NCBI GenBank assembly: GCA_030627405.1
Contig: DAOUSD010000002.1
Coordinates: 1-33,017, forward strand
DNA: 33,017 nt
DNA from: Deltaproteobacteria bacterium
GTDB lineage: Bacteria > Desulfobacterota > Desulfobacteria > Desulfobacterales > ETH-SRB1
Direction of reading: 5' to 3'
The notes under the pieces were generated by a model, which worked only from the letters and a program-made list of their open reading frames with translations, had not been told where the DNA came from and searched no databases. The translations under genes were made by a program, and so were the position numbers. How positions within the stretch are numbered: the stretch's first letter is position 1; every line of letters starts with the position of its first letter. Shown piece by piece: positions 3,594-33,017 of this stretch.

Positions 3594-3642
3594 CGCCATG
3601 CGCCATGCGCTCTGCACCTTACACTATGCTCTATGCGCCACA
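3594..3642. repeat. Degenerate heptanucleotide tandem array (7 units, cgccatg-like)
   Basis: The array reads cgccatg cgccatg cgctctg cacctta cactatg ctctatg cgccaca, directly upstream of the Rpn gene. The ORF-track start at 3598 lies inside this repeat. Confidence 0.65.
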
Positions 3643-3657
3643 AAGGAACTCGGACAA

Positions 3658-4668
3658 ATGACAGAAATATCCAATCCTCATGACCGGTTTTTCAAAGACG
3701 TGCTTTCGCGCAGAGAGGCTGCACGGGATTTTGTGCTTCACTACCTGCCAGCGGAGGTGGCAAAGCTTTTGGATGTTGAATCGCTGGTGGTAAGCAAAGA
3801 TTCTTTTGTGGATAAAGAGCTAAGAGAGCATTTTTCAGATATCATTTATCAGGTTGACCTAAAGCAGGGAGATTCTGCTTATATTTATCTGCTCTTTGAG
3901 CATAAGAGCTATTCAGATCCTCTGATTGCCTTGCATCTTTTGCGTTACATGATAAAAATATGGGAACAGGGTGTCAAACAGGGCAAAGCAAGGCCGTTTT
4001 CACCGATTATTCCCATTGTGGTCTATCATGGAAAGTCAAAATGGAAGGCCGGTCCTGATTTTTATGCGCTTTTTGATCTTCCCGACGGATTACAGGCATA
4101 TATGCCCAATTTTCGTTATCTCCTTTGTGATCTTTCGCACCGCAGCGATGAAGAACTCAAAGGTACTGTTATTTTGAGAGCCGCGTTTTTGCTGTTGAAA
4201 CATATTTTTTCGGATGATCTGAGTGACCGGCTGCCGGAAATTTTGAGTCTTTTAAAGCGCCTTTCGGACAAACAAAGCGGTCTTGAATACCTGGAAACCA
4301 TTTTGAAATATCTGGCCTCAGGCACGGACAAGGTAGGAGCCAAAGAGCTTAAAAAACTTGTTACGAAAATTTTCGAAGATAAAGGAGAAGATATCATGCC
4401 TACATTAGCTGAGCAATGGACTCAACAGGGAATTCAGCAGGGAATTCAGCAGGGAATTCAGCAGGGAATTCAGCAGGGAAAGCTTCAAAGTGTGCGTGAG
4501 AGCGTCCTTGAAAGCCTTGAAGCCAGGTTTGAGGTTGTCCCGCGGTCTGTTGTCAAGAAAATTGATCAAATCGAAGAATTGTCTTTGTTGAAGATTCTCC
4601 ACAAAAAAAGTGTTGTTGTTGACTCTCTGGAGCAATTCAAAGAGATTATGGCAAGGCTTATGGAGTAG
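3658..4668 (+). CDS. Rpn family recombination-promoting nuclease / putative transposase (Transposase_31, PD-(D/E)XK) with a DUF4351-like tail
   Basis: The N-terminus MTEISNPHDRFFKDVLSRREAARDFVLHYLP is the typical Rpn/YhgA start. The C-terminus has a QQGIQQGI repeat followed by a helical tail. The start was moved to ATG 3658 because 3598..3657 translates the heptamer repeat. Confidence 0.8.
   Translation: MTEISNPHDRFFKDVLSRREAARDFVLHYLPAEVAKLLDVESLVVSKDSFVDKELREHFSDIIYQVDLKQGDSAYIYLLFEHKSYSDPLIALHLLRYMIKIWEQGVKQGKARPFSPIIPIVVYHGKSKWKAGPDFYALFDLPDGLQAYMPNFRYLLCDLSHRSDEELKGTVILRAAFLLLKHIFSDDLSDRLPEILSLLKRLSDKQSGLEYLETILKYLASGTDKVGAKELKKLVTKIFEDKGEDIMPTLAEQWTQQGIQQGIQQGIQQGIQQGKLQSVRESVLESLEARFEVVPRSVVKKIDQIEELSLLKILHKKSVVVDSLEQFKEIMARLME
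4426..4481 (+). repeat. 12-bp in-frame tandem repeat cagggaattcag (4 perfect units plus a partial) encoding (QGIQ)n
   Basis: Direct reading. Each unit carries a gaattc site. The repeat lies within the Rpn CDS. Confidence 0.9.
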
Positions 4669-11787: not shown

Positions 11788-12990
11788 ATGATTATACATC
11801 TTATAGCAGCAGCAAGGCCCAACTTCATGAAAATTGCTCCTCTTTATCATGCCTTAAAAAAGGAAGATTGGGCAAAACCGATTATTGTTCATACTGGCCA
11901 GCATTATGATTTGAATATGTCAGATGCGTTTTTTAAAGATTTGGAACTTCCCGAACCTGACATTCATCTCGGCATAGGCAGCGGCAGTCATGCAGAACAA
12001 ACAGGAAAAGTGATGATTGCCTACGAAAAAGTGCTAATGGAACATAGACCTGACCTGGTCATTGTAGTAGGTGACGTCAATTCAACTATGGCCTGCACCC
12101 TGTCAGCTTCAAAAATATCATATAACCCAAGTAACCCAATAAACTCAAGCAACTCAAGCAACCCAACTAACCCAACTAACCCAATAAACCCAATAAACCC
12201 AATAAACCCAATAAACCCAAATAACCCTGAACGGCCATTGATAGCCCACCTCGAAGCTGGCTTGCGTTCCTTTGATCGTACCATGCCGGAAGAGATTAAT
12301 AGAATTGTAACCGATTCTTTGGTAGATATTCTTTGGACGCCATCTCCTGATGGTGATGAAAATCTACTTCGGGAAGGGATATCAAAAGAGAATATCGAAT
12401 GTGTTGGAAACATTATGATCGATTCTCTTGAGATGCTTCGCAACAAAATTGAAGAACAGGCTGTTTTTAAGGAATTTGATGTAAATAAAAATGCCTATGG
12501 TTTAATTACTCTGCATCGTCCTTCTAATGTGGACAGCATAGAAGTGTTATCATCTATTTGTGATGTTTTTATAAATATATCTGAAAAACTTCCTTTGATC
12601 TTTCCTGTTCATCCGCGAACAAGAAAAAATCTTGAAAATTTTGGATTGATAAATGTTTTAGAAAAAGCAAAAAGCATATTTCTTGTTGAGCCAATAAATT
12701 ACATCCGCTTCATGAATCTGGTTTTCAACTGCCGGCTTGCTATAACGGATTCAGGGGGCATCCAGGAAGAAACTACTTATCTTGGCATACCCTGTCTAAC
12801 AATGCGTCCCAATACTGAGAGACCGATAACTGTTGATCAGGGTACAAACACGTTATGCACAATAGATAATCTTGAAGCTTTTGTTGAAACTATAATCACC
12901 GAAAGAGATACAAAGCTTTCAGTCCCTGAATTATGGGACGGCCATACCGCAGAAAGGATAGTACAATCCATCAAGACCTATATGAGCTAA
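11788..12990 (+). CDS. wecB: UDP-N-acetylglucosamine 2-epimerase (non-hydrolysing) carrying a 36-aa repeat insertion
   Basis: Motifs seen are ARPNFMKIAPL, GQHYD, HLEAGLRSFD, MPEEINR, HRPSNVD, HPRT, TDSGGIQEE and RPNTERP. Length is 400 aa against roughly 360-376 for typical WecB. Confidence 0.9.
   Translation: MIIHLIAAARPNFMKIAPLYHALKKEDWAKPIIVHTGQHYDLNMSDAFFKDLELPEPDIHLGIGSGSHAEQTGKVMIAYEKVLMEHRPDLVIVVGDVNSTMACTLSASKISYNPSNPINSSNSSNPTNPTNPINPINPINPINPNNPERPLIAHLEAGLRSFDRTMPEEINRIVTDSLVDILWTPSPDGDENLLREGISKENIECVGNIMIDSLEMLRNKIEEQAVFKEFDVNKNAYGLITLHRPSNVDSIEVLSSICDVFINISEKLPLIFPVHPRTRKNLENFGLINVLEKAKSIFLVEPINYIRFMNLVFNCRLAITDSGGIQEETTYLGIPCLTMRPNTERPITVDQGTNTLCTIDNLEAFVETIITERDTKLSVPELWDGHTAERIVQSIKTYMS
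12121..12228 (+). repeat. 9-bp tandem repeat (12 units, NNNAACCCA) inserted in frame in wecB
   Basis: The array reads tataaccca agtaaccca ataaactca agcaactca agcaaccca actaaccca x2 ataaaccca x4 aataaccct. It encodes YNPSNPINSSNSSNPTNPTNPINPINPINPINPNNP. Confidence 0.9.
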
Positions 12991-12997
12991 AAATTAG

Positions 12998-13024
12998 ACA
13001 GGATTTACAAGATATTCAGGATGG
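12998..13024 (-). repeat. Three 9-bp units containing ATCCTG/CAGGAT (acaggattt acaagatat tcaggatgg)
   Basis: Direct reading. The reverse complement (atcctgaat atcttgtaa atcctgt) resembles the last codons of the ATP-grasp gene (tatcctgaa aatcctgtc, about 11729..11746). Confidence 0.4.
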
Positions 13025-13031
13025 TTTTTCT

Positions 13032-13062
13032 TTTCAGCACTTTCCAGAAGAAAGTGCTGAAA
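13032..13062. other. Perfect 13-bp stem / 5-nt loop hairpin downstream of wecB
   Basis: The sequence is tttcagcactttc cagaa gaaagtgctgaaa. No U-tract follows on either strand, so its role as a terminator is unproven. Confidence 0.5.
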
Positions 13063-13276
13063 CTTAATCCGCTTTCAAGCGAATTGCCCGCCCTGTCTGA
13101 CGAAGTGGAGCGTAGATCCCGCTGTGTCGGGGTCACGATTGTTGTAAATTGATCGGGTATGTAATATCCATATATTCAAAATGGGCAGAAAACAAACACT
13201 TTCAAACATAAACAAAACCCACGTGTTGTTTTACAAATTGCAACCTTTGAAAAATCGTAATTAGGGAGACTAACTT

Positions 13277-13384
13277 ATGAGAACGATTCAGACCGAGGTG
13301 CCGGAGTGGCTTTTTAAAAAGGCTGAAGCTTTGGTTAAAGAAGGTTGGTTCCGAGACGAAAAGGATATTTTTTCTGAGGCTCGA
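13277..13384 (+). pseudogene. Truncated ribbon-helix-helix (CopG-like) antitoxin-type fragment
   Basis: MRTIQTEVPEWLFKKAEALVKEGWFRDEKDIFSEA resembles the beta-strand/helix/helix of RHH antitoxins. The reading frame then runs into glycosyltransferase-derived sequence. Confidence 0.3.
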
Positions 13385-14054
13385 TATCCATTTATACCAA
13401 ACAAAAAGGCGCATGTCCTTTATAACGCAGTTGATTATTCAGAACAAGTTCCCAAACAAACAAAAGATGCAGTTGTTATTCTGCAGCCGCTGGGTTGGAT
13501 ACAAAGGCTTTTTTGTCCTGTTAGATGCTTTAAAATTACTTGAAAAAAAGCGTGATGATTATGAAGTGTATATCGCAGGCGGCATTCACACTACCAATAA
13601 GTCTAATGATAATATTATCTATGAAGAAAAGCTAAGGAATAAAATCGCTAAAATAAACAATGTGAAAGTAATTGGTTATGTTTCTCATGATGAGCTAAAG
13701 AGCATGCTAAATAAAATTGATATACTTCTTTTTCCATCTTTGTGGGATGAACCTTTTGGACTTGTCCCCGCAGAAGCTACTATGGCTTCCACACCTACAA
13801 TAGCCTTTAGCGTGGGGGCTTTGCCTGAGGTTGTTATACACAATGAGACAGGTGTGCTAATTAAAAAGAGCAGATATGATCTTATTAATGCAAGAAGGCT
13901 TTCAAGTGAGATTTATAAATGTCTTGATAATCCGATGGTTATCAGAAAGCTTGGAATCAATGCCAGGACAAAATGCGTAAATGAATTTAATTGGCATGTT
14001 TATATGCAAAAACTTTTAAAGATCTATAAAAAAATAACAGATAATAATGAATGA
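13383..14054 (+). pseudogene. 5'-truncated and frameshifted GT4 (GT-B, Glycos_transf_1) glycosyltransferase remnant
   Basis: Only the C-terminal domain is present. IPNKKAHVLYNAVDYSEQ is in frame 2. LLFCSRWVGYKGFFVLLDAL and the EX7E motif EPFGLVPAE...GALPEVVIHNETGVLI are in frame 0. The frame switches in the A-rich tract around 13450..13465. Confidence 0.6.
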
Positions 14055-15330: not shown

Positions 15331-17177
15331 CAGGAATATATTATTTTAATCAGCAGGACAGCAAACCGCTTGAATATGAACTAATTCCTATGTTCAAAGC
15401 AATGTCCCCTGGCCAAATAGATGATCAAGCTACTTTCATTAATGCTGAATATTTTGCTTTCGGTGTATGCAATAGTAATAATGTTCACTCAGGTCAATTT
15501 TATGAGAATGATGATTGGGTTGTATCCTTTAATGGCAGACTTACAAATAGTGACGAATTAATAAAACGAGCTGGTTTTCCAAATCGTGATTCCAACACGT
15601 CAGAAGCAAGAATTATTGCTTATCTGTTTGATAAATATTTGAATGAAACCGTAGAAATACTTCAAGGAATATTTGCTTATGCTGTTTGGGATAAGAGGAA
15701 TAAGCAGCTTTACATATATACCGACAGGCATGGTTATGAATTTATATATTATTTTCAAGATAATAACAAATTTGTGTTTGCCTCTGAAATTAAACCTATC
15801 TTAAAACATTTAAATAGACGTATCAAAGTAGATATTGATGGGATATGCGATATTTACAATTTTAACACAGTCTTTAATAATCGAACACCTTATAAAAATG
15901 TAAAACTGCTTCCACATGCAGCCGCGTGCCAAGTATTTAAAGATAGTTTAACTATAAATCAATACTGGGATTATCCGATAGACGTAAATCATTGTAAAGA
16001 CCATTATAACAAAATACTGGATGATGCTAAAAATGCTATTCAGTCTGCTGTTCAGAATGCTGTTAACGGTTTTGACAACCTGGGTATCATGTTGAGTGGT
16101 GGACTGGATTCGCGCCTTCTTGCTGCTGTGGCAGTCCAGCATTCACCAAATATGAAGGCTTTTACATTTCAATTTGGTGAATCAATTAATAAAGATTGCG
16201 ACATCGCTGAGCAGATAGCAAAGAGTCTTGGAATTGAATTCCAACTTATCCAATTACCACCTTCGGATTTTATCAAAAACATTGAAGAGTGCCTGATAGA
16301 TAGTGATGGGCAATGGGGCTTCCTTGATTTAATTCCCAAGATTACTGCGATTAGTAAATTATATCCTGGGATTGCGTTAATAAACGGTTTTTTAATGGAT
16401 ACCCTTTTTAAATCAGGCTGGGCTTTTTTCCCTAATAAGGGATTTGAAAAAATTGGTATCGAACATTTTGTCAGCAGATATTCGGTAATGGGTGACTATA
16501 TGGTTGACAAAGTGTTTAATCCTGATTTTGCACAGTTGCTTAAGTTAAAAAAAAGGGAAAGAATAAATGAAAATATCAATGCTATGCCTCAAGACAAGCC
16601 TCTTGAAGTTTCACTAAAATTTTACTGCCTTAACAGAGCCCGCAAATCTCATAATCTCATTTTTAAAGCATTCAAGCGTTATACAGATATTATACTGCCA
16701 GGTGCGGATTACGCACTGACTGACTTTGCTTTTAGTCTTCCAAATGAACTGAGATCTAACTCTGATTTTTATAGGGATTTGATCTGTACATGGTTTCCAG
16801 GTATCGGGGCAATCGAGTGGGACCTCACAGGTAAACCGGTAAATAGAGGCATGAAAAGCAAAAAACGAAAAATAGCTAACTTAATTTTTAAAATAAAGTA
16901 TTCTGCCCAACGGTTAACAAAGGGGAGTTTGGATTTCCTTAATGCCAAACATTCTTTTAATAGAAAATTTAGAGCTGACAAAATATTCAGAACATCTGTT
17001 CAGGATATCCTATATGATAATAAGAGCTTGAACCGTGGTTTTTATAATCATGATAGGTTAAGCAGACTAATCAAAGAACAGTTAAATGGAAAAGATTATT
17101 CAGTTGTATTTAAATCTCTTTTATCAGTAGAATTGCTTCACAGGATATTTATTGATGAACCGTTCAAAAATAGCTGA
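15318..17177 (+). CDS. Asparagine synthase-like amidoligase with a degenerate glutaminase site
   Basis: The PP-loop SGGLDSR is intact. The N-terminus is MSGIAG (Ser where the Cys2 nucleophile should be), NGE is replaced by NGR, and DSE by TSE. Confidence 0.8.
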   Translation: MSGIAGIYYFNQQDSKPLEYELIPMFKAMSPGQIDDQATFINAEYFAFGVCNSNNVHSGQFYENDDWVVSFNGRLTNSDELIKRAGFPNRDSNTSEARIIAYLFDKYLNETVEILQGIFAYAVWDKRNKQLYIYTDRHGYEFIYYFQDNNKFVFASEIKPILKHLNRRIKVDIDGICDIYNFNTVFNNRTPYKNVKLLPHAAACQVFKDSLTINQYWDYPIDVNHCKDHYNKILDDAKNAIQSAVQNAVNGFDNLGIMLSGGLDSRLLAAVAVQHSPNMKAFTFQFGESINKDCDIAEQIAKSLGIEFQLIQLPPSDFIKNIEECLIDSDGQWGFLDLIPKITAISKLYPGIALINGFLMDTLFKSGWAFFPNKGFEKIGIEHFVSRYSVMGDYMVDKVFNPDFAQLLKLKKRERINENINAMPQDKPLEVSLKFYCLNRARKSHNLIFKAFKRYTDIILPGADYALTDFAFSLPNELRSNSDFYRDLICTWFPGIGAIEWDLTGKPVNRGMKSKKRKIANLIFKIKYSAQRLTKGSLDFLNAKHSFNRKFRADKIFRTSVQDILYDNKSLNRGFYNHDRLSRLIKEQLNGKDYSVVFKSLLSVELLHRIFIDEPFKNS

Positions 17178-18392
17178 TTATAAAAAACATACAGTGATAG
17201 ACCATAATGGGTATTTAACAGAATTTAAAACCCCTAATAATGCTACGGCTAAACAAAAAACAACAATAAAAATTATTGCATGTGGTGATACGAGTCCCGT
17301 CAGAAAGCTTGAAAATAAAGTAATACAAGGGAAGTCATCGCATATTCTTGGCAATTTAAAACCTATTTTGCAGAATGCAGATTTAGTATTTGCAAACCTG
17401 GAAGCAGTATACTCAAACAGAGGTGTCCCTTTAGACAGGGTTCCTGTATTTAGGTTGAATCCAAAAGCATTTGACATTATCAAAGAAGCAAATATCAACG
17501 TTGTGTCTCTTGCAAACAATCATATGTTTGATTATGGACATGAAGCATTCATTGACACATTAGACCTTTTGCAAAAGAATAATATTAATTCATTCGGAGC
17601 TGGTTTAACGTTAGAAAATGCTTTAAAGCCTGCTGTTTTTGAGACCCAAGGTATTAGATTCGGGTTTATTGGCTTTAGAGACAAGGAAGCCTGGTGGTTT
17701 AATGATAATGGAGTAATAACCCCTCAAATACAAAAAAAATAGTACTGAAAAGTATTAATGAATTAAGGCCTAAAGTTGACTGGTTGATTTTATCTTTGCA
17801 TTTCGGATGGGAATATCAGCTTTTTCCAAGTCCAAAAGACGTTAATTTATGCAGGTTCTTTATTGATAGTGGCGTTGATATAATTTTGGGGCACCATCCG
17901 CATTATCCGCAGGGAATAGAACGCTACAAGGATGGATTGATAGTATACAGCCTTGGTAATTTTATTTGGGATCAGAATCTTGTAGGACATACGAACTCCA
18001 GTTATCTGGCGGAAATATCCATTTTAAAGGACAGCATTCAAAGCGTGAAGGTCATCCCCTACCGCCTCAATAGCAACTATCGGCTAGAGTTGCTTAACGA
18101 TAATGGTGCTATAGAAGAAATAAATTCAATAGCTAAAATATTGCGTAACAAAAGAATATTAAATGAAAAATGGTACTTTATCGCTCGCAATAAAATAATA
18201 GAGCAAAGTATCAATATTACAAATGCCGCCTTGCAAAAAAAAATAAAAAAATTATTACAACTCATTAAAGTCTTATCCTCGCCGCGCTGGGTATACACGG
18301 CTATATCGATATTATTTTATATTATTACAGGTAGAGCTATTTGGTATGAAGTTAAAAAACGGGTTAAGAGGAAATGTAGTTTGAATGCTTAA
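17152..18392 (+). pseudogene. CapA/PgsA-family (PGA_cap, metallophosphatase-like) gene split by a frameshift in an A8 run
   Basis: ORFs 17152..17742 and 17784..18392 align end to end with the intact paralogue at 23784..24905 (ACGD, ANLEA, SLANNH, then SLHFGWEY, GHHPH, YSLGNF). The junction is caa aaa aaa tag at 17731..17742, and the downstream frame is -1. Confidence 0.8.
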
Positions 18393-23723: not shown

Positions 23724-23783
23724 AAGGACTTGTGTTACGATTCTATTCACGTTAACTGTAATTGTGAGAGACCAAACAATACA

Positions 23784-24905
23784 ATGACCGATAAAGTCGT
23801 AAAATTGGCGGCAGTGGGTGACATTGCCTTGACCCATGACTATGACAACTTGCTTGAAACGGAAGGGTCCCATTATCCCTTTGATCATGTCAGGGGTTTT
23901 CTCAAGGGTCATGATATTGTTTTCGGCAACCTGGAAGCTCCGCTTTCTATTAGGGGAGAAACATTTCCCATGAAGTGCAGTTTGCGCTCAAATCCTCATT
24001 ATGTGGAAGGATTGAAAGAAGCTGGCTTTAACGTTTTATCCCTCGCAAACAACCATATCCTCGATTATAAGGAAGAAGCCTTTTATGATACGTTTGAATT
24101 TTTAGATAAGTTCAATATTAGCTACTTCGGAGCCGGGAGGAATATTAAGGAAGCAAGGAAGCCCGCGATTTTAGAAACCAAGGGTGTAAAAATCGGATTC
24201 CTCGGTTATTGTGACGTGGTTATTGATTCTCCATTTTACGCTTCCGACAATGAAAAAGGAATAGCTCCACTAAAACAGAGTTACATCAGGGAAGATATTA
24301 CACATCTAAAAAAGTTAGTTGATGTGACTATTGTATCTTTGCATTGGGGAATAGAAAACTGGTGCTACCCTTCACCTAACCAGATTGATATTGCACACAA
24401 CATAATTGATTTTGGCGTAGATTTAATCCTCGGTCATCATCCGCACGTACCTCAGGGGATAGAGAAATACAAGAACGGCTATGTAGCATACAGCCTGGGA
24501 AATTTCATCTTTTCCGATATACACTGGTTCTGGATGAATGAAGCTGGTAAAAAAATGTGCTCGGCTGTTAGACTCAATAATAACAACAGGGAATCAATTA
24601 TTTTAACTGTTTCTTTGGATAAAACTGGGATACAACAGATTGAGTCCACCCCCTGTCTAATCTCAAAGAATCTGCAACCGGTCTTAATAACTGACAATGA
24701 GTTTCTTAAAGAGAAGATAAATAAACTATCGGAGAAGTATTATATGGCTAATTATGAAAGGTTTTGGCGTCGTTACTCTTTAGTGCAAAAATATAAGACC
24801 TTGTCATCAAACATAACTAGGTGTCTTAAGAATATCCATAGGCTGAGACCTGCACATGCAAAAGAGCTTTTCGATATGGTAAGATCTGGTTCGAAAACGG
24901 TTTAG
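23784..24905 (+). CDS. CapA/PgsA-family protein (PGA_cap), intact paralogue
   Basis: Motifs seen are AAVGDIAL, FGNLEAPL, SLANNHILDY, SLHWGIEN, GHHPHVPQG and YSLGNFIF. The start was set at ATG 23784; the track start at 23730 is TTG. Confidence 0.8.
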   Translation: MTDKVVKLAAVGDIALTHDYDNLLETEGSHYPFDHVRGFLKGHDIVFGNLEAPLSIRGETFPMKCSLRSNPHYVEGLKEAGFNVLSLANNHILDYKEEAFYDTFEFLDKFNISYFGAGRNIKEARKPAILETKGVKIGFLGYCDVVIDSPFYASDNEKGIAPLKQSYIREDITHLKKLVDVTIVSLHWGIENWCYPSPNQIDIAHNIIDFGVDLILGHHPHVPQGIEKYKNGYVAYSLGNFIFSDIHWFWMNEAGKKMCSAVRLNNNNRESIILTVSLDKTGIQQIESTPCLISKNLQPVLITDNEFLKEKINKLSEKYYMANYERFWRRYSLVQKYKTLSSNITRCLKNIHRLRPAHAKELFDMVRSGSKTV

Positions 24906-26869: not shown

Positions 26870-27847
26870 ATGGAAGGCCTTTTTGACGTAAACATTCCTG
26901 ATACAGAAATTATTAATAGACTTTCGAAAATGGAGTTCAGTAAAATAGGTGAGGGTTCCTCCGCCCATATTTTTGGTGATAATACCAAAAGCATCGTTCT
27001 AAAAATATTTCCACCACTCAACGTTGGAAATCCTCAAGACTTGGAATTTATCAACAAAAATATTTTTTATAAATACGCTGACATTTTAACCGCACGTTTG
27101 CAGAACTATCGGGCTATCAATTGGCTACGACAAAAAGCAAAATTTATTATTGCAGCATCTCATAGTTCTAAAAATATCGAACAGATTAAAAAGTCATGTG
27201 AATTATCTATAAATGCATATGAGATAAGTATTAAAAAAGGTCTTATGAAAGGACTTCCCACAAGGGTAATTCCAAATTGTGTATCAACATTGTCACTCAA
27301 TATAAATCGTAAACTTCTGAGTTACTTGTTGAAACCGAATAAAATTATAATCCAAGAGCGGTTTAATAATGATGATGTTGTATTAAACGTTATAAAATCA
27401 TTAGTGAAAAAAGGTGATATTCTATCCTCAAAAAAATTAATTGAGGGTGCTGTAAACTTTCAAGTCTATCTGTGGAAGCAAGGATTAACAAATACAGATA
27501 TGTCTTTTAATATGTTAGATAGTTTATTATTATTGTTGGATGGTGAATTCCAGATTCATGATGTAAATGGTATTAATGAGTCAATTAAGCACTCAAGATG
27601 GTATATTAGAGAAAAGGATAAAGATATAGGTTTGATATTTAGAGAAATGAAAGAAATAGGATATCCAGAATCACTGTATGCTACAAATCGTAAAGGTATT
27701 GCTGAAACAGCCCGTAAGTTGCATACATTTTTGCCAAAGCAATACAGGAACGATTTGGTAATGTCATTTCTAAACTTTTCTAGGGAAGTTTTATCAGAGA
27801 ATGTAATGATGACCAATTGGGAAAGTAATAAGTACTTACATAACTGA
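26870..27847 (+). CDS. Hypothetical protein, possibly protein-kinase-like fold (Kdo/WaaP/RIO-like); 3' end abuts the IS
   Basis: IGEGSSAHIF...IVLKIF resembles a Gly-loop plus Lys. TDMSFNML followed by QIHDVNG resembles HGDLxxxNIL ... IDF/DFG. The stop TGA (27845..27847) lies inside the IS terminal repeat. Confidence 0.35.
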   Translation: MEGLFDVNIPDTEIINRLSKMEFSKIGEGSSAHIFGDNTKSIVLKIFPPLNVGNPQDLEFINKNIFYKYADILTARLQNYRAINWLRQKAKFIIAASHSSKNIEQIKKSCELSINAYEISIKKGLMKGLPTRVIPNCVSTLSLNINRKLLSYLLKPNKIIIQERFNNDDVVLNVIKSLVKKGDILSSKKLIEGAVNFQVYLWKQGLTNTDMSFNMLDSLLLLLDGEFQIHDVNGINESIKHSRWYIREKDKDIGLIFREMKEIGYPESLYATNRKGIAETARKLHTFLPKQYRNDLVMSFLNFSREVLSENVMMTNWESNKYLHN

Positions 27848-29428
27848 AGTTTCACCGTTTTTCCAACAGTTTTTAGATCAAATTATTTATTTTTAAAAAA
27901 ATCACTATTTGGCACGAAAAATGAATTTCAATTTTGGTGCCAATATTTCTTATTATTTCAATAAGTTATATCGCTTTATTGCTTGCGATATACTCCTTTT
28001 TGTGGTATGAAATATAGCAGATAACCTGCTAAAATTAAACCCAAAAGGAGTGAAATTTCATGTTTATCTTACACAATGTCCTTAGGCCACTTCAAAATGA
28101 GTTTTCATCAAGTAACCTTGGCAACCAACGCAGTAGATGGTTCGTCTATGCCCTGCTTTCATTCATTATCCCTTTTACCAGCTCTATCTCATCGAACATT
28201 CTTCGTTGTATGCATACCTTTTTTGGAATCAATATCAATAAACGTAAATTCTATACGTTCATGGCATCAACCAAGCTTCCCTGGGATAAACTTTGGCCAA
28301 AATTGTGGGATTCTATTCCAGACCCTCTAACCGATGGACGATTGATAGTCGCTCTTGATGATTTTATCAACCCTAAAACCAGCAAAAAAATTTTTGGCTG
28401 TTCGCATATTTTTGACCATGCCGCAAAGTCAAACCAGAGCAAATACCCTTGGGCGCAGAATGTGGTTCTCGTTGGCTTGCTTACATTCATAAAAGGACGT
28501 TGGGCATGTCTGCCTTTTGCACATAGATTTTATCTGCCGCAAAAAGCTCTTACCTCAAAGTCAGGCAACATGAATATTCCTGGGAAAACAGTCTCATTTA
28601 AAACAAAACTGGAACAAGCGGTTGATATGCTGGTTCAATTAGCTCATCATTTTGACGGGACTAAAGTTTTGTGTACTTGTGATAGCTGGTTTGGCAATAA
28701 TGGGTTATTCAAACCTGCCCGAAATCATATTGGCAACCTGTTTAATTTGCTCTCACGATTACGCTCCAATATTGTGCTATATTCTATGGCACCCAAAAAA
28801 AAGCCGGGGCAACGTGGAAGAACACGTAAATATGGAAATCGTTTGGGCTCATGTAGTGAAATGGCTGCTATTTTCAAAGAACAAGCTTCAAAACTTCGGG
28901 TATTTCTTTATAGCGATTATCGTGATGTCATGACTTATTCAACGGTGGTCATGCTAAAAACACTCAAGTGCCCTATCCGGGTAGTATGGGTATTTCGGAA
29001 AACCCAATGGGTCGCACTATTTTCCACTGATCTGGATTTGTCAATTAAACAGATCATCGAATATTATGGGGCCAGATGGAAAATAGAATCAGGGTTCAAA
29101 GAAATCAAGCAGGAGATTGGCAGCAGTAAAAGTCAAACCCGTAATGCTCATGCTGTCATTAATCACATTAATTTTTCAATGATGGCTGCTACTATTATTT
29201 GGATTTATGGCGCACGTCTTGCAGATATCCCGGAACGTCGGCATAAAGTCAAAGGTCGTAACAGTTTTGCCTTTTCTGACCTTAGACATATTATAGCCAA
29301 AGCCGCACTGAATGAGGATTTTGATGCTGTTTGCCCGAGGCACCCCAAATCCTTGAAAAAATATTTCATTGACGTGCTGCTACGCATGGTTGCATGATAA
29401 TTATGCTTTGATTTCGGTGAAACTTCAG
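27844..29428 (+). mobile_element. Insertion sequence (about 1.58 kb), IS4-superfamily (IS4/IS701-like)
   Basis: It has 14-bp perfect terminal inverted repeats, ctgaagtttcaccg (27844..27857) and cggtgaaacttcag (29415..29428), enclosing a single DDE transposase ORF. Confidence 0.8.
28060..29397 (+). CDS. DDE transposase, IS4 superfamily
   Basis: Motifs seen are ALDDF (D1), CDSWF (D2) and YYGARWKIESGFKEIK, the Y-x2-R-x3-E-x6-K signature. aaggag lies 9 nt upstream of the ATG. Confidence 0.85.
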   Translation: MFILHNVLRPLQNEFSSSNLGNQRSRWFVYALLSFIIPFTSSISSNILRCMHTFFGININKRKFYTFMASTKLPWDKLWPKLWDSIPDPLTDGRLIVALDDFINPKTSKKIFGCSHIFDHAAKSNQSKYPWAQNVVLVGLLTFIKGRWACLPFAHRFYLPQKALTSKSGNMNIPGKTVSFKTKLEQAVDMLVQLAHHFDGTKVLCTCDSWFGNNGLFKPARNHIGNLFNLLSRLRSNIVLYSMAPKKKPGQRGRTRKYGNRLGSCSEMAAIFKEQASKLRVFLYSDYRDVMTYSTVVMLKTLKCPIRVVWVFRKTQWVALFSTDLDLSIKQIIEYYGARWKIESGFKEIKQEIGSSKSQTRNAHAVINHINFSMMAATIIWIYGARLADIPERRHKVKGRNSFAFSDLRHIIAKAALNEDFDAVCPRHPKSLKKYFIDVLLRMVA

Positions 29429-29584
29429 CTTAATAACATAGGCGAACTGTTTAATATCAAAGCATACAGTACTGTAAGCAGCATATTACGAAGAGTTTCG
29501 AGGCTCAAAAAATATGACAGAAAAATTAAAAGACAGATAGGAAAAATACAAGACAGCATTAATAAGGGTCAAAGGCAGACCTGA
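29429..29584 (+). pseudogene. 3' remnant of a gene encoding a DnaA-C-type HTH tail (as in RayT/IS200-like transposase fusions), cut by the IS
   Basis: LNNIGELFNIKAYSTVSSILRRVSRLKKYDRKIKRQIGKIQDSINKGQRQT begins exactly at the IS right end and has no upstream part. The family assignment rests on recalled resemblance and is uncertain. Confidence 0.4.
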
Positions 29585-29701
29585 CCCCTTTTTACACATT
29601 TTCTGCAGACGGTCATTCACAGTAAACAACGACGCCAAACAAGTAAGCTGATCAGGTGTTTTCTTCGGCTTACCGGGCAGTGGACTGGTTCAACTTGGCT
29701 C

Positions 29702-29875
29702 ATGGAACCTAAGGGACTCCATCGGGTGTTGACTGACCTTACTTCGAGCTATCGAAACAGGGCAGCACACATTGATGAACTTGCCAAAGACGATTACGTA
29801 GGCTGTCGTGAAATCGTAATCGGTGCTCAGGGCGTTCTATGGAAACTGATCCTTTCAACGGAGAGACACAAGTGA
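29702..29875 (+). CDS. Small ORF (57 aa) with an R-N-x3-H (HEPN-like) motif, possibly a truncated cassette gene
   Basis: The ORF reads MEPKGLHRVLTDLTSSYRNRAAHIDELAKDDYVGCREIVIGAQGVLWKLILSTERHK. It ends 13 nt before attC-1 and is below the 60-aa cutoff of the ORF track. Confidence 0.25.
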   Translation: MEPKGLHRVLTDLTSSYRNRAAHIDELAKDDYVGCREIVIGAQGVLWKLILSTERHK

Positions 29876-29888
29876 AATATAGAACCGC

Positions 29889-29950
29889 GTCTAACAAGGC
29901 TTTTGCAGCGGATCGCAAAAAGCCGCGCCCGCTGAAAAGCAACGTTATGC
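29889..29950 (+). other. attC recombination site 1 (62 bp)
   Basis: The site reads gtctaac-aag-gctttt(g)cagcgg-[17-nt loop]-ccgctgaaaagc-aac-gttatgc. It has the R'' box RYYYAAC, a 3x3 unpaired spacer, a 12-bp L stem with one extrahelical G, and the R' box GTTATGC. Confidence 0.75.
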
Positions 29951-29972
29951 ATATTAACAGGAGGTCATAATC

Positions 29973-30917
29973 ATGCCTCAATTCAAGAGGGTATTCCTTT
30001 ATGCAATCATACCTGCTCTTGTAGCTGGTTTTTTCTCATTGGCTCCAAAAATCTATGACGTTATTACCGAACCAAAATCTGAGTTAGCTTATAATGTCGT
30101 CGATGGCCCTGGACTTGATATACAAGGCAAGATAAGGAAGATCTATTCTGTTGAAGTACGGAATAGTGGTAAAAAAGCTCTCAGTAATATTCATGCTGAA
30201 TTAAGGGTCTCTAATGGACAGATTGAGCAATTTAAAATTGAAGACGCTTCCGGTATAAAACCATCCACCGATCTGTTAAATGATACCCTTTCAGTAAATG
30301 CCGACAACCTCCATCCAACCGAATCCTTTATCATTTCAGCAATGCTATTAATGCCAGCATTAGATACTAATGTGGCATTTAATCTTCGCAGTAAAGAAAC
30401 GCTCGGAAAAATCAGATCAGAAGATAGCCCCAAAAAGAATACAAAGCTTGACATAATTGGTGCAGTACTCGCAGGTTTTTCTGTTTTTTTTATGGCTACA
30501 CTGGTAGCTTCAGGAAGGATTCCACTCATAAAAACCCTTATGATGGGGGGAAGGCAAGATATTTTGTATTATATTACTGCAAGAGTCGGCCTAACAGACA
30601 TAACCAACCAATTGAGAGCTTTTGACACAAGCCTGACATATCTTAGAACGGCAGATATATTTCTTGCAGCTGGACTATCTAAAGAAGAACTTAGACCTTT
30701 AGCCATAAAGGCCCTTAAATGTATGTTACTGATAAGAAACATAGCGCCAGTTTCTTTGAATGTTGTCAAAAGAAATGTTCAGTTTCTGGAGGGCGGAAAT
30801 TATTTGGAGAAAGAAGTCAACTCTCTCCGAGAAGAATCAATAAATATTTCAAATTATTTAGAGCTACGTGATAGGGTTGACAGGCATTTAGCAGAAGGAT
30901 CTCCACATAGTGAGTGA
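29973..30917 (+). CDS. Cassette-encoded hypothetical membrane protein (2 predicted TM helices)
   Basis: aggagg lies 7 nt upstream of the ATG. TM1 is FLYAIIPALVAGFFSLAP and TM2 is LDIIGAVLAGFSVFFMATLVASG. A beta-rich domain of about 130 aa lies between them, and a helical tail of about 125 aa follows. No family was recognised. Confidence 0.6.
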   Translation: MPQFKRVFLYAIIPALVAGFFSLAPKIYDVITEPKSELAYNVVDGPGLDIQGKIRKIYSVEVRNSGKKALSNIHAELRVSNGQIEQFKIEDASGIKPSTDLLNDTLSVNADNLHPTESFIISAMLLMPALDTNVAFNLRSKETLGKIRSEDSPKKNTKLDIIGAVLAGFSVFFMATLVASGRIPLIKTLMMGGRQDILYYITARVGLTDITNQLRAFDTSLTYLRTADIFLAAGLSKEELRPLAIKALKCMLLIRNIAPVSLNVVKRNVQFLEGGNYLEKEVNSLREESINISNYLELRDRVDRHLAEGSPHSE

Positions 30918-30952
30918 ATTTTGGAAACAAGCTTCTGTTAACCAAGCTGAAT

Positions 30953-31022
30953 GCATAACCTCAGCATTAAGGTAGACGGTCAAAGCTAGCGCTTTTCCCG
31001 CTGCTTATGCTGGTCGTTAGCA
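30953..31022 (+). other. attC recombination site 2 (70 bp)
   Basis: The site reads gcataac-ctc-agcat(t)aag ... cttatgct-ggtc-gttagca. TAAC pairs with GTTA, there is an 8-bp L stem with a bulged T, and an inner hairpin aaagc/gcttt. Confidence 0.55.
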
Positions 31023-31046
31023 ACACAGAAAACATGGAGAGTAAAA

Positions 31047-31592
31047 TTGAAAATAAGAAAATCGACTGAATCAGATTTAAAAGATGTACTGGATGTCGAA
31101 ACACAAGCATTCGGCAATGAAAAAGGCCCTGAGATTGTAGGTCTTGTAAATGGATTGTTAATTGATCCGACTGCCATGCCACTTTTGTCCCTTCTTGCTG
31201 TTAATGATGATAAAACAATTGGGCATATTCTGTTCACAAAAGCACGTATCACTGATTCAAAAGAATCAATATCGGCTGCGATACTTGCTCCACTTGCAGT
31301 TCTTCCTGATGCCCAATGTCAAGGTGTCGGTGGTCAGCTTATTGAAGAGGGCTTGAGGTTATTGTCAGAATCGGGGGTTGCGCTGGTATTTGTACTCGGG
31401 CATCCTGATTACTATCCACGCCATGGATTCAAGCCAGCAGGTGCTCTTGGATTTGAAGCATCTTACCCAATTCCAAATGAACACGCTAATGCGTGGATGG
31501 TTCAAGAACTTCGTCCCGGTGTGATTGGTAGCGTAAGTGGCAAGATTATATGTGCAGATGTGCTAAATCAGCCTGAGCATTGGCGTGAATAA
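31047..31592 (+). CDS. GNAT family N-acetyltransferase (YhbS/COG3153-like), cassette-encoded
   Basis: The start (M)KIRKSTESDL resembles the YhbS N-terminus. Motif A is QCQGVGGQLIEEGL, and the tail GHPDYYPRHGFKPA is present. The TTG start is preceded by ggagag. Confidence 0.8.
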   Translation: MKIRKSTESDLKDVLDVETQAFGNEKGPEIVGLVNGLLIDPTAMPLLSLLAVNDDKTIGHILFTKARITDSKESISAAILAPLAVLPDAQCQGVGGQLIEEGLRLLSESGVALVFVLGHPDYYPRHGFKPAGALGFEASYPIPNEHANAWMVQELRPGVIGSVSGKIICADVLNQPEHWRE

Positions 31593-31601
31593 GAAAAATA
31601 T

Positions 31602-31701
31602 TGCTAACAAAAGGATTGAGCTGACCACAAAAGCCGAGCCGATTTTCAGTAAATTCAAAACATTAGGCGGCTTTTGTGTCAGCTCATCCTTGCCGTTATA
31701 A
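31602..31701 (+). other. attC recombination site 3 (100 bp)
   Basis: The site reads tgctaac-aa-aaggat(t)gagctgac(c)acaaaagccg-[31-nt loop]-cggcttttgtgtcagctcatcctt-gcc-gttataa. It has a 24-bp stem with two extrahelical bases on the 5' arm. Confidence 0.75.
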
Positions 31702-31724
31702 GCTAAGAAAGAGAAAGTAGAGAT

Positions 31725-32072
31725 ATGTCAGATCGCTATAGTAAGGTAATTGGATACTTTGCCTATGCTTCTCCCACAGAAGTTGTTTGCACTGGCAAAG
31801 CTTGTGTAATTTCTGGTTCCCAACGTGCTATGTGTGACTACATCGCAGAAATTGATCCTGATGGGTGGAAGAAAAACACCATTAAAAAGACCAGGTTTGG
31901 TGAAATTCTGAGAGGCCTGCAACTTGGTGCGGCGTATGCATTTGATAAGGAGTCATATGCTAAGTTCTATCCCATCGCCCGCAAGGAAGGATTACCAGTT
32001 GCTGAAGGAGATTTCAAAAAACAAAAATCAAAAGACTTTCGGTTCTTCACTGTCCAGATAAAGAGCTTATAA
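31725..32072 (+). CDS. Cassette-encoded hypothetical protein (115 aa)
   Basis: The ORF fills the cassette between attC-3 and attC-4. Its stop TAA is part of the R'' box (ttaTAAc). No family was recognised. Confidence 0.5.
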   Translation: MSDRYSKVIGYFAYASPTEVVCTGKACVISGSQRAMCDYIAEIDPDGWKKNTIKKTRFGEILRGLQLGAAYAFDKESYAKFYPIARKEGLPVAEGDFKKQKSKDFRFFTVQIKSL

Positions 32073-32191
32073 CATGGCGCTGCACCCGACACCAGAAGCC
32101 GGGGCATTTTTTGCTTTTGCCATTTCAGAGCAAAACTTCGCTTTTGCCAGGTCATCATTGGCTTCCGGTGCCGGTGACCTTGCCGTTATAT
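32067..32191 (+). other. attC recombination site 4 (125 bp)
   Basis: The site reads ttataac ... cacc(c)gacaccagaagcc ... ggcttccggtgccggtg-accttgcc-gttatat. The long stem is imperfect, with two mismatches and one bulge. The 3' end ccttgccgttata is shared with attC-3. Confidence 0.55.
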
Positions 32192-32208
32192 TTTTAAAAG
32201 GAAAAGCA

Positions 32209-32946
32209 ATGCAAAGCACAACAAAGGATCTACGCTATCTCGAAGCGAAAGAAAAGTTCCTCGAATATGCATTTCTCGCCGTCGGTCACCACTTCGATTC
32301 TCGTGAAGATTTTAATAGCTATTTCGACTCAATAAACGGAGATGATCAAAAAAGTCTGTTCCTGAGAACGACATCTTTTTACTTGTTTCTGGTAAAGCGT
32401 GGTGACTGGATGGTCGACGTTCCAGGATCGGACAGAATTGTGGATTATCTTACAATCACTTATAAGTATGTAGGAATATTTTCGTTAATAGAATCCCTCT
32501 CAAATGAGAAATTCATAGATTTCTATCAATTTCTGATCAGACAAAAATCCGCGATTCCATTTCCAATAACTGACAAAAAAGCATTTGATCCATTCTATGA
32601 AAGGTACAAGACGGATTACGGCTCAATCAAAAAATGCATTGCCTTTTTCAGGGCACTCAGTCCTGTACGACAAGATGCACTGATTTCGCGTTTGGAGGTT
32701 CGAGGAACAGACCCTTCTATTGAAAGCCTCGCAAAATTTCTATACGAACTACGCTCAAAGTTCGTACACGAGGCAGAACTCGTCCACCACATGGTTGGTG
32801 GTGGTACATCCATCAGCTTCAAAGGCAAGAAAACTATAGTCTGTAAGTTATCTATCATTGATGCTTTAACATTTTTCGAGGAAGGTTTAATTGAGCATTT
32901 CAAAGATAACACCGAAATATATAGGGATAGGGACACCCATCGCTGA
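32209..32946 (+). CDS. Cassette-encoded hypothetical protein with a HEPN-like Rx4H motif
   Basis: The start was set at ATG 32209 (after aaggaaaag) because 32074..32208 is attC-4. FLYELRSKFVHE matches the R-x4-H HEPN signature within a predicted helical protein of 245 aa. Confidence 0.5.
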   Translation: MQSTTKDLRYLEAKEKFLEYAFLAVGHHFDSREDFNSYFDSINGDDQKSLFLRTTSFYLFLVKRGDWMVDVPGSDRIVDYLTITYKYVGIFSLIESLSNEKFIDFYQFLIRQKSAIPFPITDKKAFDPFYERYKTDYGSIKKCIAFFRALSPVRQDALISRLEVRGTDPSIESLAKFLYELRSKFVHEAELVHHMVGGGTSISFKGKKTIVCKLSIIDALTFFEEGLIEHFKDNTEIYRDRDTHR

Positions 32947-33017
32947 GCGCCCCTCCCACACCACCGGACATACGGATCACGTATCCGGCGATTCGGCTGG
33001 TCAAAACAGACACAAAT

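Follow-up and report, generated by a model that had tools for sequence, protein, structure and literature searches.

Clusters of attC sites lacking integron integrases (CALINs) were reportedly defined by Cury et al. in 2016 with IntegronFinder. In integrons, the crossover takes place between the G and the TT of the R' box of an attC site, and the last six bases of R' thus belong to the next cassette. Typical large chromosomal arrays have homogeneous attC sites. The origins proposed for CALINs include rearrangements that separate an array from the integrase gene intI and off-target insertion, and integrons have been reported in Desulfobacterota (PMC8618304). Group IIC-attC introns occupy the bottom strand of attC sites at the R'' box, antisense to the cassettes, and occur also in CALINs; the published ones encode a reverse transcriptase (PMC3001079, PMC7923331). 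The DNA analysed here, referred to as the window, is the whole stretch of 33,017 nucleotides from positions 1 to 33,017 of contig DAOUSD010000002.1 (assembly GCA_030627405.1), which comes from a deltaproteobacterium of the Desulfobacterota. With a probability of about 0.92, its segment 29585-33017 is an integron gene-cassette array, which is not accompanied by an integrase in the window.

The array begins with a cassette truncated at its 5' end, which is followed by three complete cassettes and by one with an interrupted attC site. The cassettes share one orientation, and the attI/intI end would lie leftward. Each cassette consists of one promoterless open reading frame (ORF) and an attC site. 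According to established integron biology, the bottom (minus) strand of attC, when single-stranded, would form a hairpin of R box, spacer and L box with extrahelical bases, which the integron integrase would recognise, and strand exchange between the G and the TT of R' would excise the cassette as a circle or insert it. The components of the array, from left to right, are:

29585..29944 (start approximate), plus strand: cassette 0, truncated at its 5' end; C-terminal ~96 codons of a family of proteins of 111-157 amino acids with an invariant RNxAAH
29889..29950, plus strand (recombinogenic fold on the minus strand): attC site 1, 62 nt; R'' GTCTAAC, R' GTTATGC
29945..31016, plus strand: cassette 1, 1072 bp, starting TTATGC; ORF 29973-30917, 314 amino acids, no family match
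30953..31022, plus strand: attC site 2, 70 nt; R'' GCATAAC, R' GTTAGCA; boxes complementary to those of both neighbouring sites
31017..31695, plus strand: cassette 2, 679 bp, starting TTAGCA; ORF 31047-31592 with a TTG start, acetyltransferase of the GNAT family
31602..31701, plus strand: attC site 3, 100 nt; R'' TGCTAAC, R' GTTATAA
31696..32185, plus strand: cassette 3, 490 bp; ORF 31725-32072, 115 amino acids, no family match; a mobile unit
32067..32191, plus strand: attC site 4, 125 nt; R'' TTATAAC, which includes the stop codon of ORF 3; R' GTTATAT
32186..32920, plus strand: cassette 4 up to the intron; ORF start at 32209, naturally 237 amino acids ending at 32919, here reading on to 32946
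32917..32920, plus strand: first four bases (ATAT) of R'' of attC site 5, split by a group II intron
32921..33017, minus strand: 3' end (domains V-VI) of a ~700-nt group II intron without an ORF, in the bottom strand of attC site 5 and antisense to the cassettes; runs off the window

As seen in these 33 kb, the array is a CALIN by the operational definition, which asks for two or more attC sites without intI in the nearest few kilobases. It has four intact sites and one interrupted site, and the nearly 30 kb to the left of site 1 are without intI; on the right, the window ends. An earlier note on this DNA, made from the letters alone, had named a sedentary chromosomal integron or a CALIN. The second term applies here by the operational definition, but the choice between the two is undecidable from 33 kb.

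Boxes and folds of the attC sites

The four attC sites proposed in the earlier note, with their terminal heptamers and lengths of 62, 70, 100 and 125 nt, were found exactly as claimed, and the sites indeed differ in length and sequence, being alike only in their terminal boxes. An attC site is expected to have inverse boxes R'' RYYYAAC and R' GTTRRRY, which are 50-150 nt apart; all four sites have the form NNNTAAC...GTTANNN with a length of 62-125 nt. The inner bases of the boxes fit the R/Y consensus only loosely (for example, GTTATGC), as in several bona fide sites. Each interval between sites holds one plus-strand ORF with a purine-rich ribosome-binding site, which also agrees with the earlier description.

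Because the crossover lies between the G and the TT, the last six bases of R' should be complementary to the R'' of the next cassette's own site. At all three junctions, the R'' of the following site is the exact reverse complement of the preceding R' in seven of seven bases: GTTATGC/GCATAAC between sites 1 and 2, GTTAGCA/TGCTAAC between sites 2 and 3, and GTTATAA/TTATAAC between sites 3 and 4. Expressed as cassette start and own R'', the pairs are TTATGC/GCATAA(C), TTAGCA/TGCTAA(C) and TTATAA/TTATAA(C) for cassettes 1-3, and TTATAT/ATAT for cassette 4. The R' of site 4, GTTATAT, predicts that the next R'' is ATATAAC; ATAT is present at 32917-32920 and is followed directly by the intron. There are 12 complementary bases beyond the obligatory TAAC/GTTA, for which arithmetic gives a chance of ~6e-8 if the bases are independent. 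Most junctions of class 1 integron control arrays obey the same rule. Both the complementarity between successive sites and the fifth, interrupted site at 32917 had been missed by the earlier note.

The short spacer, the imperfect stem, and the bulges on the 5' arm of the top strand, which had been described from the letters, were seen in bottom-strand folds of sites 1-3 taken singly and of site 4 as a consensus of homologues, all of which have the R/L box geometry. In the DNA folds of sites 1-3, the R box comprises 4-5 base pairs, TAAC(G) with (T)GTTA. Inside it are an unpaired spacer of 2x2, 3x2 or 2x1 nt, a stem of 6 base pairs, one bulged base, and a further stem. The bulged base is on the 3' arm of the bottom strand, corresponding to the 5' arm of the top strand, and unpaired bases on the opposite arm occur only near the variable apex. 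The fold energies are -15.2 kcal/mol for site 1 (z = -2.7), -13.6 kcal/mol for site 2 (z = -2.8) and -23.7 kcal/mol for site 3 (z = -5.7), the z-scores being relative to dinucleotide shuffles. For site 4, folding of the single sequence leaves the structure ambiguous (z = -1.9). The consensus fold of this site from the window and its diverged homologues in loci L013, L016 and L020 (L numbers denote the loci compared) contains the R box, a spacer of 3x2 nt, and a long L stem, in which the bulges again fall on the bottom strand's 3' arm, and has compensatory changes in 9 of 33 pairs. The geometry of the sites matches that of class 1 control sites. A copy of site 4 in L014 (4129-4330) contains a run of N with the central part inverted on either side, probably because the assembly went wrong at this long palindrome.

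A geometry filter was applied to every AAC...GTT pair 52-146 nt apart on both strands of the window (n = 1574). Five pairs passed, comprising sites 1-3 and two that fold at only -2.6 and -4.2 kcal/mol. The filter is specific but insensitive, since it recovers two of nine bona fide class 1 sites (loci L030 and L035) and misses site 4. Because it had been designed after the sites were seen, an independent test was made with covariance models. A scan of the window with Rfam at the gathering threshold gave no match; no attC model was found among the Rfam families.

The IntI1 protein (100% identical to annotated intI1) was used as a query to obtain 12 class 1 integron regions from plasmids. Sixteen distinct attC sites, all bona fide and from clinical class 1 integrons, served for training, namely those of aadA1, aadA2, aadA16, aadB, aacA4, arr-3, dfrA5, dfrA14, dfrA27, blaVIM-2, aac(6')-29a, estX, psp, cmlA1, qacL, and an orf. 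RNAalifold found no structure in the MAFFT alignment of these sites, and the R box/L stem structure was drawn by hand on the bottom-strand alignment; 86% of its cells are paired, which none of 500 shuffles reached. The window was searched on both strands, with filters off, with a first model (R1) and a rebuilt model (R2), the E-values of which are rough because of a shortened calibration. In 90 kb of plasmid DNA, the matches of R1 with E < 0.01 were attC sites only, the sole extra match being the opposite strand of the qacL site. The matches in the window are:

29889-29950, minus strand: site 1, exact ends; R2 32.6 bits, E 1.5e-6; R1 32.0 bits, E 2.5e-6
32067-32191, minus strand: site 4; R2 22.3 bits, E 7.6e-4; R1 16.7 bits, E 0.027
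31602-31701, minus strand: site 3, exact ends; R2 20.1 bits, E 0.003; R1 17.4 bits, E 0.018
12794-12858, minus strand: off-target match within a gene; R2 15.2 bits, E 0.057 (15-16 bits over the models)
30953-31022, minus strand: site 2, exact coordinates; R2 8.1 bits, E 4.4 (over both models 7.5-8.1 bits, E 4-7)

The top three R2 matches in the 33 kb are thus sites 1, 4 and 3, with exact coordinates and on the expected strand. Apart from those listed, only the plus strand of site 1 exceeds 15 bits (16.7 bits, E 0.023). The off-target match has the form GCATAAC...GTTAGAC on the minus strand inside a UDP-GlcNAc 2-epimerase gene; several of its pairs are mismatched, it has no cassette context, and it is judged to be a chance match.

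Mobility and cargo of the cassettes

The 115-residue protein of cassette 3 is encoded in identical form on 17 metagenomic contigs. In the 8 of the 17 that were examined, the flanking genes all differ. The sites upstream of the gene are unrelated in all eight, and the identity sets in right after them, at G|TTATAAG, and stops at the G|TT of the site that belongs to the cassette. By direct comparison, the exact G|TT bounds in eight contexts are evidence of movement as an integron cassette. In the related contigs, R2 also matches the sites upstream of the cassette in L017 and L019. In L018 it matches the site of the cassette itself, which is shorter there, and it finds several further sites in both L014 and L003. 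A homologue of cassette 4 with 88% identity in L022 shares its left boundary, GTTATAT, and is followed by an intact attC that starts with ATATAAC, the TAA of which is the stop codon. Cassette boundaries can be verified without IntegronFinder, from the box complementarity of successive sites and from comparison across contigs. Upstream of cassette 3 in L018 (~30-200), two attC-like sites stand nearly back to back, with a very short or empty cassette.

Among the searches of the cargo against Pfam, NCBIfam, PADLOC, PHROGs and PDB, the only match to a known function is that of the cassette 2 ORF to GNAT acetyltransferases (Pfam Acetyltransf_9, E 4.9e-9, and also Acetyltransf_7 and Acetyltransf_1). 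The sequences from cassettes 1 and 3 have no match in any of these databases. The cassette 4 protein has 266 homologues, mostly of 231-237 amino acids, and no Pfam domain. One homologue, with 62% identity, is located near a tyrosine recombinase in a genomic island (L026 6482-10705) and has no visible attC-like flanks, which means that the family is not confined to integron cassettes. The AlphaFold model of the cassette 4 protein has a predicted local distance difference test score (pLDDT) of 81.8 and a predicted template modelling score (pTM) of 0.80, and a Foldseek search with it against the PDB gave no match (best E 0.34). The family contains the invariant residues R182 and H187 (RSKFVH), and that of cassette 0 has the invariant RNxAAH (RNRAAH, window 29702-29875). 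Since these Rx4H motifs are like the Rx4-6H motif of HEPN proteins, both families might be HEPN-type nucleases, the motif being the one feature that points to it. Because the cassette 4 model has no neighbour in the PDB, the idea stays only a lead. A scan for promoter-like sites found no enrichment. The 237-residue protein with 266 homologues and the 115-residue protein on 17 contigs represent uncharacterised families of mobile genes.

The left boundary and the origin of the array

The earlier note had placed an insertion sequence (IS) and a gene remnant to the left of the array. The left side does consist of an IS and a gene tail, followed by the truncated cassette:

27844..29428, plus strand: IS of the IS701 family with a transposase ORF at 28060-29397; bounds the array on the left
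29429..29584, plus strand: 3' tail of an unrelated gene (ending ..KGQRQT* in the frame translation), a remnant between the IS and cassette 0

The IS is bounded by terminal inverted repeats of 14 nt, CTGAAGTTTCACCG, which are perfect and lie at 27844-27857 and 29415-29428, and its transposase matches NCBIfam NF049999 IS701 (E 2e-113) and Pfam DDE_5. The sequences at its flanks (..ACATAA | IS | CTTAAT..) do not match as a target-site duplication. Homology to the cassette 0 protein family starts only past the stop codon of the gene tail. The homologues of cassette 0 (n = 11) cover 100% of the 91-residue query and have an N-terminal extension of ~20 or more residues. The cassette start GTTAGAC expected from site 1 is absent between the IS and this site. 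The 5' truncation of cassette 0 and its missing start indicate that the array is broken on the attI-proximal side. Together with the gene tail and the IS without a target-site duplication, the truncated cassette suggests, without proving it, that a rearrangement separated the array from its attI-intI end.

Several findings weigh against the array as it is described here. No integrase was found in the window or in any related locus examined. Site 2 is unsupported by the class 1-derived model (~8 bits), and the off-target match at 12794-12858 scores near sites 3 and 4, so that site 1 is the only one for which the model decides by itself. For cassettes 1 and 2, all further occurrences are on collinear sister contigs, and the two are only putatively mobile as single units. 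A role of the IS in the loss of the intI end is inferred from the missing duplication and the truncation.

It is possible, although unlikely, that these cassettes form the distal part of an integron that is complete, sedentary and chromosomal, with intI and attI elsewhere in the genome, for example, past another copy of the IS, and that the CALIN label is an artefact of the window and of assembly breaks. Integrons have been reported in Desulfobacterota (PMC8618304), and an IS without a target-site duplication is expected after recombination between two IS copies. Contigs of several assemblies break at the IS and at the intron, which leaves connections unseen: the sister contigs end at the IS or are collinear, and assemblies of the same strain break at both elements. 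An exact search of representative genomes for the flank to the right of the IS returned nothing. However, the 28 kb leftward contain no recombinase. The segment 1-27.8 kb is an exosortase/polysaccharide biosynthesis locus with EpsH, glycosyltransferases, AsnB-like enzymes, Wzy_C, flippase-like and PGA_cap proteins, and ORFs of at least 100 amino acids in the window include no match to Phage_integrase or to an integron integrase, which bears out the earlier note in that no integrase is in view. The related loci examined are also without intI. Among the long contigs with homologues of the cassette 4 protein, L022 carries an array without intI, and L027 and L028 provide non-array contexts; the tyrosine recombinase of L026, the one found beside such a homologue, fails the integron-integrase model. 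In addition, cassette 0, at the left end, is truncated and joined to the tail of an unrelated gene, which means that the original junction has been destroyed. The lengths and sequences of the sites vary, unlike those of the homogeneous large chromosomal arrays familiar from general knowledge, and would fit a CALIN better.

An origin in which the cassettes were never beside attI at this locus, but reached a secondary chromosomal site through the action of an integrase supplied in trans, is improbable. Off-target insertion is a listed route to CALINs (PMC8618304); however, it would leave a cassette intact, whereas cassette 0 is without its 5' end and the GTTAGAC start. Because cassette 0 is truncated, a later deletion or rearrangement would be needed even after insertion at a secondary site.

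Finally, the idea that the palindromes are repeats like the repetitive extragenic palindromic (REP) family, or intrinsic terminators, that follow ORFs by chance draws on the position of the imperfect hairpins just past stop codons and on one terminator-like pattern that overlaps the end of site 4, but it is rejected as effectively refuted, because it leaves unexplained the box complementarity, the exact G|TT boundaries in eight contexts and the matches of the model built from clinical attC sites, the sites differ in sequence and length apart from their terminal boxes, terminator-like sites are unenriched (4 found versus 2.9 expected), and the other 29 kb of the window hold no related palindromes of the REP kind that the earlier note had named as a possible refutation.

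Around the integron cassette array, further irregularities were observed. The left end of the IS supplies the TGA stop codon of ORF 26870-27847 (325 amino acids, no family), which may have been truncated by the IS. Within the polysaccharide locus, a PGA_cap gene is split into two ORFs, 17152-17742 and 17784-18392, which match positions 1-141 and 193-255 of the profile. The sister contig L029 has the same split, which could be a frameshift or a pseudogene, and the window also holds an intact paralogue at 23730-24905. ORF 13413-14054 (213 amino acids) contains only the C-terminal Glycos_transf_1 domain and is preceded by ~420 nt of non-coding DNA (window 12991-14054), and may thus encode a glycosyltransferase in truncated form. 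The same locus encodes, at 3598-4668, a YhgA-like putative transposase (Pfam Transposase_31, E 1e-63), which is flanked on both sides by long non-coding gaps.

The intron at the right edge and comparison with known systems

The end of the window, 32921-33017, matches Rfam RF00029 (group II intron domains V-VI) with 32.5 bits and E 7.7e-5, which is short of the gathering score of 40, and 32921 is exactly where the match ends. A 40-mer from this segment was found in 11 contigs of metagenome-assembled genomes (MAGs). The copies of the intron in related loci are:

L003, minus strand: 709 nt
L008 3187-3895
L010 1709-2420
L011 2564-3261
L009 584-962: 379 nt, internally deleted

The segment in the window is identical to the full copies in L003, L008, L010 and L011 in 95-96 of 97 nt. 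The full copies are 698-712 nt long, start with GUGUG, end with AU, and contain no conserved ORF. They are 75-95% identical to each other, and domains V-VI are nearly invariant. All match RF02001 (D1-D4-3) with 75-103 bits, and those in L003, L008 and L010 also match RF01998 (D1-D4-1) with 39-43 bits, in every case above the gathering score; the copy in L011 has the D1-D4-3 match only. The full copies thus contain the elements of a group II ribozyme (GUGYG, domains I-IV, domains V-VI and AY), of which the window holds domains V-VI only. At its far end in six other loci, the intron is followed by AAC (five loci) or AGC (L011). In the copies with both ends, it separates ...RYYY from the AAC (AGC in L011) of an attC-like R''; on the bottom strand, it follows TTGTT or TGGTT (TGGCT in L011), and it is antisense to the cassettes. 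The attC-like fold of the intron target in L003 was judged by eye, and the matches of the covariance model in L003 are at other sites. In the window, the intron splits the natural TAA stop codon of cassette 4, which adds eight codons (YRDRDTHR) to the ORF. The 5' end of the same ORF-less intron was observed in the attC upstream of cassette 3 in L020 (~1-145).

By its insertion site, the intron at the right edge behaves like a group IIC-attC intron, but it is at most a candidate member of that lineage. A reverse-transcriptase ORF is neither conserved in the 698-712-nt copies nor found beside the second copy in L010, and no protein-encoding relative of the intron was found in the DNA examined. 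The diversified family of ~700-nt introns, present in at least 12 different attC-like sites in MAG contigs, can tentatively be regarded as a candidate non-autonomous, attC-specific retroelement, which would be mobilised in trans without a reverse transcriptase of its own. It is the only mildly unusual item of the locus and may deserve a dedicated look.

The intron resembles the group IIC-attC introns, such as S.ma.I2 and its relatives, in its position in the bottom strand of attC at R'', in its antisense orientation, in the parting of the gene from its site, and in a 5' exon ending with TTGTT. By contrast, the copies described here are ~700 nt long and contain no reverse-transcriptase ORF, which makes placement in the lineage by protein phylogeny impossible. 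The junction is TTGTT/R by the GUGUG...AU convention, as opposed to the published TTGT/T; the two are indistinguishable because both candidate bases are T.

In comparison with the mobile class 1 integron arrays that carry aadA, dfrA, blaVIM-2 and cmlA1 cassettes, the dfrA5, estX and VIM-2 sites and site 1 of the window share the R box TAAC(G)/(T)GTTA, the 2x2 spacer, and the bulge on the same arm. The boxes of successive sites are complementary in both systems, and site 1 scores like the arr-3 site on the class 1 model (32 versus 32-36 bits). Unlike the class 1 arrays, the array in the window has no intI1, attI1, Pc, or 3' conserved segment, its cargo is not antibiotic resistance, and its host is probably an environmental member of the Desulfobacterota, the nearest genome for a housekeeping-type gene of the window being a Desulfobacteraceae MAG with 67% amino-acid identity; sites 2-4 are distant in sequence from the clinical sites.

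The array corresponds to a CALIN, with two or more attC sites that share an orientation and each follow a single ORF, no nearby intI, and a mostly uncharacterised cargo. Judged on 33 kb, it differs from a CALIN in nothing essential; however, its visibly damaged left end, with an IS and a truncated cassette, favours one particular origin. Integrons, CALINs and introns that target attC are all known already, and the array leaves the current picture unchanged. It is one more well-documented environmental cassette array in a Desulfobacterota genome, probably from marine sediment, and the circulation of at least one of its cassettes between arrays is directly visible in metagenomes.

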